Position numbers and translations under genes: made by a program
Part shown: one piece after another, positions 9,112 to 36,607 of the stretch
How the letters are laid out: the number at the start of each line of letters is the position of its first letter
Position numbering within the stretch: position 1 is the first letter of the stretch
Notes under the pieces: model-generated
The model's input: the letters and a program-made list of their open reading frames with translations, nothing else
What the model was told of the DNA's origin: nothing
Database searches by the model: none
Assembly (NCBI GenBank): GCA_016183365.1
Contig: JACPES010000003.1
Location: 169,467-233,466 of the forward strand
DNA length: 64,000 nt
Direction of reading: 5' to 3'
From: Candidatus Collierbacteria bacterium
GTDB taxonomy: Bacteria > Patescibacteriota > Microgenomatia > UBA1400 > JACPES01

Positions 9112-9156
9112 TTTCCCCTCTTGACACTTCGGGTATTTTATTGGTAAAAATAATTC

Positions 9157-9420
9157 ATGTCGGTTTTAATTCATGAGCCGGTGGCAGTGGTAGCGGTATT
9201 TAAGAATGGCCGGGTGAAGCCCGTAGTGTTTCGATGGAAGGACAAGAAAATTTCCATCGAGAGCGTTTCTTTTATGTGGCAAACAACGCAGGGAAAAGAA
9301 CATTTTCTTCACTTCACTGTTATTGCTTCTCAAACATTATACGAATTGCTGTTTAATATTTCATCAATGGTATGGAATCTGGAACGGGTTGAGACAAACA
9401 TCGGAATTTCTACTATATAA
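9157..9420 (+). CDS. Hypothetical 87 aa protein.
   Basis: An ORF preceded by TTGACA-N18-TAAAAAT. I recognise no family. Its position between rplO and dinB is unexpected. Confidence 0.35.
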   Translation: MSVLIHEPVAVVAVFKNGRVKPVVFRWKDKKISIESVSFMWQTTQGKEHFLHFTVIASQTLYELLFNISSMVWNLERVETNIGISTI

Positions 9421-9450
9421 AATGTTATATAACATTTTATATAAAGTAGC
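9408..9450. repeat. Near-perfect palindrome of about 40 bp centred on AAAATGTTATATAACATTTT (copy 1).
   Basis: The sequence ctactatataaaatgttatataacattttatataaagtag is read directly. A second copy lies at 48601-48640. Confidence 0.8.
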
Positions 9451-9480
9451 GATGAACGCAGTGAACTAATCCTAACGCCT

Positions 9481-9516
9481 ATTGTCTTAACTAATAACCA
9501 ATAACCAACAACCAAT
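9481..9516. repeat. A/C-rich AACCAATAAC repeat (copy 1, intergenic).
   Basis: The sequence ctaataaccaataaccaacaaccaataactt is read directly. A related copy sits in-frame in mltG at 57950-57995. Confidence 0.7.
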
Positions 9517-9521
9517 AACTT

Positions 9522-10766
9522 ATGCAAACGACTATTATTCACGTCGATTTCAATTCGTATTTTGCCAGCGTGGAACAGCAGAAAAATCCATTTCTGCGGG
9601 GCAAGCCGGTGGGAGTGATAAAAGCAGATGGCCGGACGGTAATTATCGCCGCTTCATACGAGGCTAAACGGCGTGGAGTTAAAACCGGCAGCAGCGTTTT
9701 TCAGGCCAAGCAACTTTGCCCGGATATTTTATTGGTTCCGGCTGATTTTGACAGTTACGATTATATTACCCGTAAATTTTATGCAATTTGCCATAGATAT
9801 AGTGATTTGGTGGAGTTATTTTCTCTGGATGAAGTTTTTTTGGACGTTTCCCGGACGGCTTTGTTATTTGGCGGAGCCGGAGAAATCGCCCTGTTATTGA
9901 AAAAAGATATTCGAAAAGAACTGGGAGAATGGTTGCCGGTCAGCGTCGGCATCGCCAAAAATAAGTTGTTAGCTAAGTTGGCTTCGGACTTGGAAAAACC
10001 AAACGGATTAGTGGAAATTACCGATAAAAACCGCGACGAGTGTTTGGGCCGGGCGGAATTTGAACAAATTTGCGGCATTGGCCGCCGGTTGGAACAAAGG
10101 CTGAAAGATATGGGGGTTACTCAATTACTACAGATTAGATTCATCTCCGAGAAGTATTTGGCGGCAAGCTTTGGCCCCTATTGGTCGAAGCAATTAAGGA
10201 AAATGACTTGGGGAGAAGATAATTCTCCGATAGTTCCCTCATATCAGTTGCCTTTGCCTAAATCCGTTTCCCGGACGCATACTTTATTTAAAGATATTTT
10301 CGAGCAGGAAGAAATTTTAGCCGTCGTTAGAAATTTAGTTGAAGAGGCCGCCGAAAAACTAAGGCTGGCTAAAATGTCCGGACGGCAGTTTGGCCTAATA
10401 GTCAGAAACGGAGAAAAAAGCGAGGTAAAATTTGTCACCCGGAAATACTGTACCAGTGATTCGTTAAATATTTTCCAAGAATTAAAAAGTTTGTTTCTAT
10501 CTATAAAATGGCGTGAAGGGGTCAGATTTTTAGGCGTCTGGGTCAGTTTACTGGCGGAAGAAAATAATTTGCCCCAATCGCTTTTGCCGGAAGTTAACCG
10601 CCGACTATCGATTTTATCCGTCCAGGACCGGATTAATTTAAAATTCGGCCATTACACCCTGTTTCCGGCGAATTTACTGCAGGCTTCAATCATTCATCCG
10701 GAAGTCAATGGGTTTTTGGGAGACGAGAGAATAAAAAATAGGATAGGGTCTTTATCCATCGTTTAA
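9522..10766 (+). CDS. dinB: Y-family DNA polymerase IV (DinB/ImpB type).
   Basis: MQTTIIHVDFNSYFASVEQQKNPFLRGKPVGV ... SVGIAKNKLLAKLAS matches the UmuC/DinB palm and finger motifs. Confidence 0.85.
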   Translation: MQTTIIHVDFNSYFASVEQQKNPFLRGKPVGVIKADGRTVIIAASYEAKRRGVKTGSSVFQAKQLCPDILLVPADFDSYDYITRKFYAICHRYSDLVELFSLDEVFLDVSRTALLFGGAGEIALLLKKDIRKELGEWLPVSVGIAKNKLLAKLASDLEKPNGLVEITDKNRDECLGRAEFEQICGIGRRLEQRLKDMGVTQLLQIRFISEKYLAASFGPYWSKQLRKMTWGEDNSPIVPSYQLPLPKSVSRTHTLFKDIFEQEEILAVVRNLVEEAAEKLRLAKMSGRQFGLIVRNGEKSEVKFVTRKYCTSDSLNIFQELKSLFLSIKWREGVRFLGVWVSLLAEENNLPQSLLPEVNRRLSILSVQDRINLKFGHYTLFPANLLQASIIHPEVNGFLGDERIKNRIGSLSIV

Positions 10767-34155: not shown

Positions 34156-36164
34156 ATCAGGATTTGGTTTATTTGCTGATTTTTGCGGCCATGCTCGTTA
34201 GTTTAGGCTGGATGGCATTTCCGTTAGTTTTTTCGCTGTTAAAAAAACTTCCGGATGCGGGTTTCGGAATTTCGATACCAATCGGAATTCTTTCGGCGGC
34301 TTGGCCGGTTTGGTTTTTATCATCTTTGAAGATTATCGGATTCTCTTTAGCGGCGGCCATATCGGGAATTGCAGTTTTATTCTTGCTTGGGACCATGACT
34401 GCTTACCGTCAACGCCAAGAGCTTAAGATTTGGTTAACCACCCATCGGAAGATATGGATATCGGAAACCATACTATTTATAACGGCATTTTTGTTTTGGG
34501 GCCTGATTCGCGGTTTTCAGCCGGATATTCAGGGGTTGGAAAAATTCATGGATATAGGATTTACGAATAGCGTGATGCGGTCGCGGTTTATGCCTCCGTC
34601 TGATCCTTGGCTTGCCGGAAAGACAATTAATTATTATTACTTCGGACATTTTTTAGCAGGCTTTCTGATTATGCTTTCAGGAATAGACTCGGCATTCAGT
34701 TATAACTTAATGTTGGCGGCAGTTTTCGCCCTAGGCGTAACCGGCGGATTTAGTTTTATTTATAACTTTAGCGGTGGGAAAAAGGCCGGAGTAATTGGCG
34801 GTTTATTGGGAGCCCTAATGTTAAATCTTGGCGGAAATGGCCATACTTTATGGCATTTGCTGTCTAAGTCGGGAAAAAGCTATTGGTACCCGGACGCAAC
34901 CAGATTTATTCCGTTTACTATCCATGAATTTCCGGCCTATTCTCATGTAGTGGCGGACCTGCACGGCCATTTGATGAATTTCCCGCTGGTGCTGGCCTTC
35001 TTGGTAATTTTAATTGGACTCATCAATACATTGAAGGTCAGACCTTCAATTGGTCGATATATCAATTATTTAGCTTTATTGGGGTTTTTTCTCGGAGTAT
35101 TTATTATGACCAATGCTTGGGATTTTCCGATTTACGGATTAATTTTTGGGCTGGTTTTATGCCATAAGGTTATATCAACGGCAAAAATAAAGACAGAACA
35201 ACGGTTTTTTAACATTTTCATTTCCGGATTTATAGTTTTATTAGTGGCATTGGCGACATCTCTGCCGTTTACTCTAAATTTTAAAAATATTACCCAAGGC
35301 GTAGCTTTGGTAGAAGCCAGGTCGCCTCTGTGGCAACTGGCGGTGTTGTGGGGAGGATTTGCGGTCATTGGGTTAGTGGCGGGATGGCGATTCAGTCGGA
35401 AGAAAATGGACTATGGGGCTTTGCCATTAGCGATGGTAGCGGTTTCAGCGTTATTGATTCTGATCCCGGAATTTATTTACGTCAAAGATATCTATATCAA
35501 GGAATATCATCGGGCAAATACGATGTTTAAATTGACGTATCAGTCGTTTGTGATAATGTCTTTGGTGTTTGGGGTGACGGTGGGCAGTCTAATTGAGCAA
35601 AACAAAAAACAAAAAACAAAAAACAAAAAACGGACAATTTGGGAAAGTCTGATTTTATTATTGCTGGTTTTTTCGGCTCATATGCTGTATCCGTTCTATG
35701 CCATCGGGAGTTATTACAACGGGTTGAAAAATTATCAAGGGCTGAATGGATTAAGATGGTTGTGGCGGCAATATCCCAATGACTACAGGGCGTTATTATG
35801 GTTAAAGGATATCAAGTCCAAAAACGATTTTTCTATTCTCGAGGCGGTCGGCGAGAGCTATACCGATTTTGCCAGGATGTCCGCCTTTTCAGGATTTCCG
35901 ACTGTTTTAGGATGGAGGGTACACGAGTGGCTATGGCGGGGTGGATTTGATATTCCGGCCCAAAGAACCGAAGAGGTGAGAAGAATGTACGAGTCCCCCT
36001 TCGATCCCGAATCGTTAAAATTGTTTAACAACTATAAAATCCGCTATATCGTCATTGGCGATCTGGAGAGGAAAACCTATAAAATTCCGGACAATATTAA
36101 CGGTTTAGGCAAGGTTGTCTTTCAGTCCGGAAACACCGAGATTATCGAGTTCCAATCAATGTAA
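34134..36164 (+). CDS. Chlor_Arch_YYY-domain membrane protein.
   Basis: NYYYFGHF motif; 676 aa and polytopic. It contains the in-frame A/C repeat EQNKKQKTKNKKRT. Confidence 0.5.
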   Translation: MEVLLDLNQDLVYLLIFAAMLVSLGWMAFPLVFSLLKKLPDAGFGISIPIGILSAAWPVWFLSSLKIIGFSLAAAISGIAVLFLLGTMTAYRQRQELKIWLTTHRKIWISETILFITAFLFWGLIRGFQPDIQGLEKFMDIGFTNSVMRSRFMPPSDPWLAGKTINYYYFGHFLAGFLIMLSGIDSAFSYNLMLAAVFALGVTGGFSFIYNFSGGKKAGVIGGLLGALMLNLGGNGHTLWHLLSKSGKSYWYPDATRFIPFTIHEFPAYSHVVADLHGHLMNFPLVLAFLVILIGLINTLKVRPSIGRYINYLALLGFFLGVFIMTNAWDFPIYGLIFGLVLCHKVISTAKIKTEQRFFNIFISGFIVLLVALATSLPFTLNFKNITQGVALVEARSPLWQLAVLWGGFAVIGLVAGWRFSRKKMDYGALPLAMVAVSALLILIPEFIYVKDIYIKEYHRANTMFKLTYQSFVIMSLVFGVTVGSLIEQNKKQKTKNKKRTIWESLILLLLVFSAHMLYPFYAIGSYYNGLKNYQGLNGLRWLWRQYPNDYRALLWLKDIKSKNDFSILEAVGESYTDFARMSAFSGFPTVLGWRVHEWLWRGGFDIPAQRTEEVRRMYESPFDPESLKLFNNYKIRYIVIGDLERKTYKIPDNINGLGKVVFQSGNTEIIEFQSM

Positions 36165-36255
36165 AGTCATCCAAATAGTTTTTTGTTTTGCGGAGTTTGG
36201 AGAAAGTTTTGGCGCAGAACTTATTTTGACTTGACGATTAACTGGATAGTGAAAG

Positions 36256-36279
36256 GTTAAATGATTCAAATCATTTAAC
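36256..36279. repeat. Palindrome AGGTTAAATGATTCAAATCATTTAACCT (family copy 2).
   Basis: Read directly; it has 13 bp arms and a 2 nt centre. Confidence 0.75.
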
Positions 36280-36367
36280 CTTCATCGCATGATGATTGGT
36301 CGATTTAATTTATCTTTACAGAAAGCGAGATACAGTTTTTTCATTTATGGGTATATCAAAGAAAACC

Positions 36368-36410
36368 CCTGCAAACAGCTTGCGCTCTCGCAGGGGGGTT
36401 TAGTAACTCT
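36368..36410 (+). terminator. Hairpin cccctgc...gcagggg with a flanking T-rich run. It may be a terminator for the glycosylation cluster.
   Basis: A 7 bp GC stem with a 17 nt loop; T-runs on both sides. Confidence 0.3.
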
Positions 36411-36607
36411 TTATTCTATAGAGCATTTGTATAAAAGTCAAATACAGAGACGGTTGGATAAACCAGTACCAGATGGTACGTTCTTCTGAAGGGCGCGGAA
36501 TCTATAGATTCCAGCTCGAGGTTGGAATGACATCGAGATGGAGTTATTTAGCGCTTTTAAGTTATGGTTGGCATAGTCGGATTGCCAATGCTACAATAAA
36601 TACTCTT

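Follow-up and report, generated by a model that had tools for sequence, protein, structure and literature searches.

The adjacency of rplO and secY, at which the S10-spc part of the ribosomal protein gene cluster meets secY and the alpha genes, is among the most conserved gene neighborhoods of bacteria. We analyzed a stretch of 64,000 nucleotides from Candidatus Collierbacteria bacterium (NCBI GenBank assembly GCA_016183365.1, contig JACPES010000003.1, positions 169,467 to 233,466), called the window here, in which this adjacency is interrupted. All positions given without further notice are those of the window. The distance between the stop codon of rplO and the start codon of secY is 27,496 bp. 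This interval most likely represents a break in the S10-spc-alpha cluster between rplO and secY that was inherited vertically and is specific to a Collierbacteria-type clade of Microgenomates. The split belongs to a known type of event, and the block between the two genes is ordinary chromosomal DNA.

The order within each half of the cluster is the same as in the canonical cluster (L3...S5-L15 and secY-adk-map-infA...S13-S11-S4-rpoA-L17), and the two halves are on the same strand. The distal half here continues from L17 to L13-S9. The differences from the canonical cluster are the lack of rpmD, as in all members of the Candidate Phyla Radiation (CPR), the 27.5 kb at the rplO-secY junction, and an extra C-terminal tail in L15. 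Of the orders that define the spc operon, rpsE-rpmD-rplO and rplO-secY are not found at this locus, while secY-adk-map-infA followed by the alpha genes is.

Lineage-specific breaks of ribosomal clusters are similar to this locus in that a gene boundary is interrupted by unrelated chromosomal genes and the interruption is inherited within the lineage. Variation in the organization of ribosomal clusters is described for Asgard archaea (PMC10833476). Other breaks at the same junction in Microgenomates span only 0.8–2.3 kb, whereas the break here spans 27.5 kb and has a backbone conserved across a deep clade. Genomic islands share with this block a large size, a functional mixture, a position in a conserved neighborhood, and toxin-antitoxin (TA) modules. 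However, the block differs from them in that no integrase, attachment (att) site, or tRNA target is found, the composition is native, core genes are included, and the backbone is present in relatives. Our literature search found no paper describing the rplO-secY split in Collierbacteria or Patescibacteria.

The interrupted ribosomal gene cluster

Gene identities were assigned by Pfam scans of the main open reading frame (ORF) calls in the window, and NCBIfam and PHROGs scans were added. The genes for S8 (6586–7065), L6 (7073–7633), L18 (7569–7988), S5 (rpsE, 7985–8446, plus strand, with Ribosomal_S5 and S5_C matches), and L15 (rplO, 8443–9111, plus strand, with Pfam and TIGR01071 matches) precede the break, rplO being the last gene of the S10-spc part. 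The distal half (36608–43397, plus strand; Pfam and ORF list) comprises secY, adk, map, infA ... rpsM, rpsK, rpsD, rpoA, rplQ, rplM, and rpsI, and its order from secY onward is the same in three relatives (L001–L003; comparison loci from relatives' assemblies are numbered with L). An ORF opening at 36473 is longer than secY. Since the N-terminus MTRKILRY... agrees with the family consensus, the secY start is the ATG at 36608 and the longer ORF is an artifact of the ORF rule. An earlier interpretation made from the DNA alone, called the sequence-only reading here, had placed about 27.5 kb between rplO and secY and the end of the block at 36607. The Pfam-supported gene calls bear out both.

The rplO-secY junction in other Microgenomates

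For an outgroup survey, GTDB species genomes were scanned with a SecY alignment, which gave at least 80 loci with SecY identities of 49–63% from Gottesman-, Levy-, Beckwith-, Davies-, Roizman-, Woese-, Shapiro-, and Curtissbacteria, WWE3, and others. These loci were searched by tblastn with the window proteins, and adjacency was scored in 73 loci with at least 1.5 kb upstream of secY and in 7 shorter ones. The statements below refer to the survey loci listed. S8-L6-L18-S5-L15-secY-adk-map is contiguous in 69 of the 73 loci, with a median distance of 943 bp from the S5 start to the secY start, and L15 abuts secY in six of the seven shorter loci. Thus, 75 of 80 sampled Microgenomates-type genomes keep the rplO-secY adjacency, indicating that the split is derived. 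The best SecY matches of the window are all from Microgenomates/Patescibacteria. Its L15 and LepA are 100% identical to NCBI proteins from a Candidatus Collierbacteria bacterium, although an exact-sequence look-up with L15 gave no match.

The exceptions in the survey are mutually unrelated, and none of them is near 27 kb in size. MscL and SpoU genes (both on the minus strand) and a Fic gene lie between rplO and secY in L018 (2.2 kb), HlyD-like, SNase, and NUDIX genes in L057 (2.3 kb), and one ORF of 143 amino acids in L082 (0.8 kb). In L045, a WWE3 locus, the genes for MnmA, the CCA-adding enzyme, and a PBP5-like protein are found upstream of secY, and L15 is not found within 6.4 kb. These exceptions suggest that the rplO/secY boundary is a recurrent weak point in Microgenomates.

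Conserved gene order in relatives

The left part of the block is found in relatives on the rplO side. In L004 (NCBI GCA_016219325.1) and L005 (Logan SRR12113407), whose L15 is 90% identical, rplO is followed by orf87, a small conserved gene, and by dinB. In L006 (ENA ERZ27253369, an 80-kb contig) and L007 (JGI 3300027819), with an L15 core identity of 86%, the order is rplO-orf87-dinB, a gene for 204 amino acids on the minus strand, the membrane fusion protein (MFP), ABC ATPase, and MacB genes of a MacAB-like exporter, lepA(−), murJ(−), rpsT, and pilN, with protein identities of 83–91% (83–88% for dinB and the exporter). L008 has the same left-half set, dinB and the exporter included, but an aminotransferase gene and a B3_4 gene, both on the minus strand, lie between rplO and orf87. 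The copies of orf87 are 74–79% identical, and orf87 occupies the same position in L004–L007 and lies beside dinB in L008.

The middle part is found in L089 (JGI, a 73.8-kb contig) and L094 (an ENA contig), which represent one organism, with 99.3% DNA identity across their 8.2-kb overlap. A metagenome scan with GT87 as the query found only one locus, L089. The L089 contig is not among the lepA matches listed, and the same organism was reached leftward via L094. The order in this organism is lepA(−)-murJ(−)-rpsT-pilN-pilO-orf110-Big13 and two genes for proteins without a family, continuing into AmOx-PMT_2, a gene for 391 amino acids on the minus strand, and GT87-GT4(−)-PMT_2-LPGs-PAP2-DUF2298. 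Protein identities to the window range from 34% (PilO and PAP2) to 81% (GT4).

The right part is found in L002 and L003 (SecY identity of 68%), where the genes from AmOx to DUF2298 are followed by secY-adk-map-infA and the gaps between DUF2298 and secY are 4 and 38 bp. In L098, the 3′ end of DUF2298 is followed by 127 bp and then secY. Since gene content and order are shared by the relatives, the arrangement is an old inherited one and not a recent insertion. The sequence-only reading had regarded the block as inserted and had asked for a synteny comparison, taking the same separation and content in close relatives as the sign of an ancestral arrangement. The comparison gives this result piecewise, on the left (L004–L008), in the middle (L089/L094), and on the right (L002, L003, and L098), and the idea of a recent event does not hold.

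Neighbor-joining (NJ) trees were built from two marker sets, S8/L6/L18/S5/L15 and SecY/Adk/Map/InfA/S13/S11. In both trees, all split loci fall into one long-branch clade with internal distances of up to 0.41–0.46 substitutions per site. The nearest neighbors with a canonical junction are L029/L031, and for the left-half markers also L009/L013 (L013 being labeled Beckwithbacteria). L091, with a SecY identity of 66%, has a canonical junction and is placed outside the split clade.

The position of L090 should be noted. This locus (P0015; JGI 3300009296, Ga0103681_1003817) has a canonical L15-secY junction with a SecY identity of 72%, but it was rejected as a counterexample, being a chimeric contig joined inside secY (8215–9504). 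Over the first three fifths, its SecY is 71–84% identical to Roizmanbacteria-like loci, and its ribosomal protein genes are also Roizmanbacteria-like. The last two fifths of SecY and the start of adk are 93–98% identical to the window. Chimeric contigs of this kind could mislead synteny surveys.

The same chimera, of Roizmanbacteria and Collierbacteria sequence, bears on whether the window itself might be an assembly or binning artifact, i.e., a contig of a metagenome-assembled genome in which the operon halves are misjoined to unrelated DNA. In addition to such chimeras in this kind of material, three assemblies (L097–L099) break just upstream of secY. However, the rplO-orf87-dinB junction is present in the four independent assemblies of L004–L007, the DUF2298-secY junction is present in three other assemblies, and the composition is uniform over both junctions. 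A misjoined contig is therefore extremely improbable.

Features of mobile elements and base composition

The contents of the block invite another explanation, in which a recent genomic island or a composite mobile element was put into the rplO-secY spacer. The genes are an accessory-looking mixture with two TA pairs, a retropepsin-like protease, an exporter, and surface proteins. The GC content deviates in segments, being about 0.38 at 16–19 kb and about 0.52 at 23–25 kb, and the same junction has small unrelated insertions in L018, L057, and L082. The peak at 23–25 kb is accounted for by a pair of surface-protein-like genes, which L089/L094 also carry.

However, Pfam, NCBIfam, and PHROGs scans of the main ORFs at 9112–36607 give no integrase, recombinase, or transposase, and no direct repeats pair the edges at about 9.1 kb and about 36.2–36.6 kb. 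No tRNA or tmRNA is found in the window, and Rfam at gathering thresholds gives no match in the whole window. The GC content at third codon positions and the synonymous codon usage of the block are indistinguishable from those of the flanks, and only tiny cassette ORFs (orf65 and the retropepsin-like gene) deviate. The cumulative GC skew is positive across almost all of the 64 kb. The third-position GC skew, calculated on the plus strand, is positive for nearly every gene regardless of orientation, including the minus-strand genes lepA (+0.18), murJ (+0.10), and GT4 (+0.28), suggesting that the block has resided in its present orientation for a long time. The pattern agrees with the unusual genome-wide excess of G over C on one strand that is described for Collierbacteria, and also for Beckwithbacteria and Ch65 (PMC7143001).

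The block also holds the single-copy core genes lepA, murJ, and rpsT. The backbone and both junctions occur in relatives diverged by 10–45% in protein sequence. The backbone is found in every relative with informative contigs, and variation is confined to the MazEF, YafQ/RelB, and retropepsin cassettes. The genome-specific cassettes amount to only about 3 kb. By integrase, att site or tRNA, composition, and patchy presence, the block does not qualify as a genomic island. A recent island is thus very unlikely, and capture of a mobile island is also an unlikely origin of the split. The sequence-only reading was right that the block is not a single mobile element, but its composite of successive insertions fits only the roughly 3 kb of small cassettes. 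The plots of GC skew and codon usage that it had called for show a block like its flanks.

Small recent changes over the backbone

The limits of the cassettes were determined by blastn of the window against L006 and L008. The MazEF-like pair (13792–14476, plus strand), consisting of an antitoxin-like ORF and a PemK/MazF toxin with a PemK_toxin match, is absent from L006 and L007, and the end of MacB abuts the end of lepA in L006. The YafQ/RelB cassette (16417–17188) is also absent from L006 and L007. Homology with L006 stops at 16421 and resumes at 17189, and the 767 bp between them correspond to the YafQ-family toxin (16417–16710), the RelB antitoxin (16686–16970), and orf65 (16927–17124), all on the minus strand. 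The toxin at 14129–14476 is overlapped by an upstream ORF of 119 amino acids without a confident family match, and the YafQ gene overlaps the RelB gene. Both pairs consist of a toxin domain and an adjacent small partner and qualify as predicted type II TA modules.

A direct duplication of 60 bp (97% identity) is found in the lepA start region, where 16365–16424 is repeated at 17270–17329. The duplication encloses the YafQ/RelB cassette together with native upstream DNA and immediately precedes the retropepsin cassette. It is the scar of a recent recombination. The retropepsin cassette (17330–18299, about 1 kb) contains a retropepsin-like aspartyl protease gene (17623–18042, minus strand) and orf98 (17984–18280, minus strand). 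It is absent from L006 and L007, and DNA with 80% identity is found in L008 in a different context.

A decayed gene is found at 27968–28593 on the minus strand, between the first PMT_2 gene and GT87. In tblastn with the L089 protein of 391 amino acids, residues 32–146 and 330–391 are recognizable, residues of about 147–329 are deleted, and the frame is shifted. The ORF at 28114–28593 is a part of this remnant. The gene is intact in L089 and absent in L002, and the intact protein has no Pfam match. As judged from the alignments, the recent changes in the window comprise MazEF, YafQ/RelB, the retropepsin cassette with the 60-bp duplication, the decayed gene, and the variable secY spacer, the cassettes accounting for about 3 kb.

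The spacer and a putative promoter upstream of secY

The spacer between DUF2298 and secY (36165–36607) is 443 bp in length. It is homologous to that of L001, whose SecY is 94% identical, only at the ends (36177–36214 and 36557–36607). In L001, the same anchors bracket a Bro-N gene and a Peptidase_S51 gene, both on the minus strand. The slot after DUF2298 in L089 holds LytR(−) and tpiA(−). L097, L098, and L099, three independent assemblies of another relative, end 70–380 bp upstream of secY, and the contig ends adjoin an inverted-repeat cluster (260–363 in L098), which suggests that the DUF2298/secY slot contains strain-variable or repeated DNA in this lineage too. The long secY leader that the sequence-only reading had treated as a feature is not conserved, since the spacers in relatives are 4, 38, and 127 bp and that in L001 holds two genes. 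The spacer folds somewhat better than shuffled sequences (z of −2.75), and Rfam at E ≤ 1 gives no match in it. An RNA element is not proposed because the spacer is not conserved in L001.

A promoter-like element, TTGGCA-18-TGcTACAAT with an extended −10 TG, is located at 36568–36597 on the plus strand and ends 10 nucleotides before the secY ATG. The element lies in the only stretch of about 50 bp upstream of secY that is alignable with L001, and the DNA further upstream is unrelated. This conservation makes the suggestion in the sequence-only reading that secY has its own promoter plausible, and the element fits a dedicated secY promoter with a very short leader. On the other side of the block, the scan found no convincing promoter or terminator on the plus strand after rplO, where the gap to orf87 is 45 bp. 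The short gap, together with the absence of a terminator and of a good promoter from the scan, suggests that orf87-dinB may be read through from the spc operon.

In the proposed scheme of expression, the S10-spc transcript would end at or after rplO, possibly reading into orf87-dinB, and secY-adk-map-infA and the following genes would be driven by the promoter immediately upstream of secY. In relatives with spacers of 4–38 bp, secY is probably also read through from the DUF2298/glycosylation cluster. The scheme would mean that, in these small genomes, expression of secY and the alpha-operon genes is separate from that of the S10-spc genes.

The conserved adjacency of DUF2298 and secY is the most interesting loose end. 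The gap between the two genes is only 4–127 bp in three lineages, from which one could conjecture that the placement is functional, with co-transcription coupling Sec translocation to glycosylation of envelope or secreted proteins in Collierbacteria. We regard this as rather improbable. Coupling of Pmt with Sec in Actinobacteria and of oligosaccharyltransferase (OST) with Sec61 in eukaryotes is known, and the DUF2298-secY coupling, if real, would resemble them. A PDB sequence search with DUF2298 gave nothing useful.

Origin of the interval

We propose that the backbone of the interval is normal chromosomal DNA, comprising orf87-dinB, the exporter, lepA, murJ, rpsT, the pilNO-like and surface-protein genes, and the glycosylation cluster ending with DUF2298. 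The backbone would have been in place in the present orientation since before the divergence of the sampled clade members. Over this backbone, the gains and losses in the window genome would be MazEF, YafQ/RelB, the retropepsin cassette with the duplication, and the decayed gene between PMT_2 and GT87, and the 443-bp spacer would be a remnant in a recombination-prone slot. The likeliest origin would be a single chromosomal rearrangement, or a few of them, at a junction repeatedly interrupted in Microgenomates.

Several points weigh against this proposal. No second genome was found with rplO and secY on one contig across the whole block, and the conserved order is pieced together from overlapping loci of different relatives. 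For the rplO-orf87-dinB junction, the evidence comes from fairly close relatives only (left-half distance of up to 0.17). In L092/L093, the next lineage, the genes after rplO encode RNase J, an AAA protein, PNPase, S15, and IF2, all on the minus strand. In L089/L094, the lepA-to-DUF2298 backbone has the dnaK operon at one end and LytR(−) and tpiA(−) at the other, and neither the rplO-side genes nor secY adjoin it. These flanks indicate that the interval was reshuffled within the clade, and they leave its ancestral content ambiguous. In addition, the NJ trees are only approximate. As for expression, promoters and terminators were recognized only by their match to consensus sequences, the element before secY would leave almost no 5′ untranslated region, and secY is not preceded by a Shine-Dalgarno sequence. 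It should also be noted that L092/L093, L089/L094, and L097–L099 co-occur in the same samples. A search of the 64-kb window for an inversion partner, with the genes from the flanks of L092, L094, L089, and L001 as queries, found none of these genes.

An old inherited split could also have been built gradually, by in-place accretion of many small insertions to about 25 kb in the clade ancestor. The 0.8–2.3 kb of unrelated genes in L018, L057, and L082 resemble early stages of such a process, and small cassettes continue to be added both within the block and in the slot preceding secY. However, the lepA-to-DUF2298 backbone, about 20 kb in length, is one unit with different flanks in L089/L094, which points to movement of large segments. 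The essential single-copy genes in the block must derive from elsewhere in the chromosome, and the reverse-strand housekeeping run after rplO in L092/L093 looks like the breakpoint of an inversion or a translocation. Accretion therefore has a small chance of being the correct explanation, and an inherited break arising through chromosomal rearrangement is preferred.

The clade-wide rplO-secY break could mark the Collierbacteria-type lineage as a rare genomic change. For genome scans, the locus indicates that an unrelated block in a conserved operon is no evidence of a recent insertion before relatives are compared.

Loss of L30 and the C-terminal tail of L15

The stop codon of rpsE overlaps the start of rplO, so that there is no room for an L30 gene, and no rpmD is found between them (this refers to the locus only, the rest of the genome not having been searched for a relocated rpmD). 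The absence of L30, stated in the sequence-only reading, is borne out by this overlap. Likewise, rpmD is not between rpsE and rplO in the sampled Microgenomates of the survey. All CPR bacteria are without L30 (PMC7143001; bioRxiv 10.1101/2022.01.07.475337), and the S5 and L15 genes are close together in CPR (bioRxiv 10.1101/2022.01.07.475337). The loss of L30 is thus the CPR ribosome signature, already known and not new.

L15 consists of 222 amino acids, with a core at residues of about 14–153 and a Lys-rich, low-complexity C-terminal extension of about 68 amino acids (residues of about 155–222, encoded at 8905–9108). L15 is 175–261 amino acids long with variable tails in the split clade, as against 137–178 amino acids where rplO overlaps secY. 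Loss by rplO of its original stop codon and of the overlap with secY may have given rise to the Lys-rich tail. The tail is opposite to the tendency toward C-terminal shortening of CPR L15 reported in a preprint.

Palindromes and orf87-dinB

The sequence-only reading had placed palindromes at the edges of the block. Both palindromes exist, but neither is at an edge, one being conserved beside dinB and the other repeated near lepA. The perfect palindrome at 9414–9443 (15 + 15 nucleotides) overlaps the stop codon of orf87, about 80 nucleotides upstream of dinB and about 300 bp inside the block. Its core, AAAATGTTATATAACATTTT, is conserved upstream of dinB in L004 and L005 and has diverged in L006. 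This palindrome is a candidate for a dinB operator or an orf87 terminator, not an insertion edge.

The second one is a perfect 14-2-14 palindrome at 36253–36282 in the middle of the secY spacer. Another copy is located at 17189–17218 in the native DNA upstream of lepA, with the arms AAGGTTAAATGATT NN AATCATTTAACCTT, and the motif is also found between murJ and lepA in relatives (18260–18283 in L006 and 14131–14154 in L007). Rather than an att site, it is a short regulatory or structural motif present in repeated copies, possibly a binding site common to both places or a terminator acting in both directions.

The product of orf87 (9157–9420, plus strand) is weakly DUF6504-like. Its family is widespread and consists of stand-alone proteins of about 80 amino acids, with 406 cluster representatives at E ≤ 1e-3, and 16 of 30 sampled members weakly match DUF6504. 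The literature searched on DUF2298 and DUF6504 gave no description of either. As orf87 stays beside dinB even where other genes separate it from rplO (L008), orf87 and dinB (9522–10766, plus strand, a Y-family polymerase) may form a two-gene damage-tolerance unit with the palindrome as its operator. Just upstream of dinB, at 9480–9521, a run of AATAACC/AACAACC repeats (ctaataaccaataaccaacaaccaataac) without an obvious Shine-Dalgarno sequence is observed, and the run is kept in L004–L006.

Other genes of the block

The gene list of the sequence-only reading agrees with the Pfam scans. Downstream of dinB, the MacAB-like exporter is encoded on the plus strand by genes for an HlyD-type MFP (10847–11872), an ABC ATPase (11844–12551), and a MacB/FtsX permease (12487–13773). 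The lepA gene, encoding EF4, is called at 14489–16501 on the minus strand, and its true start is probably 16393 because the NCBI LepA protein has 634 amino acids. On the other side of the cassettes, murJ (18304–19962) is on the minus strand. It is followed on the plus strand by rpsT (20026–20259), PilN/PilO-like genes (20240–21525), orf92 (from 21522), and a gene for a Big_13/fn3 surface protein (21757–23169). Two proteins of 451 and 180 amino acids without a family match are encoded on the plus strand up to 25051, with a GC content of 0.51–0.56.

The glycosylation cluster (25061–36164, plus strand except for GT4) comprises genes for an amine oxidase, PMT_2, GT87, GT4 (minus strand), a second PMT_2, LPG_synthase_TM, PAP2, and DUF2298, as assigned by Pfam and NCBIfam. 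The DUF2298 protein is a large membrane protein and corresponds to chlor_Arch_YYY. A 30-nucleotide repeat containing a hairpin (83% identity) is found at the 3′ end of the first PMT_2 gene (27868–27897) and in the secY spacer (36503–36532). It could be coincidental or represent a small dispersed element.

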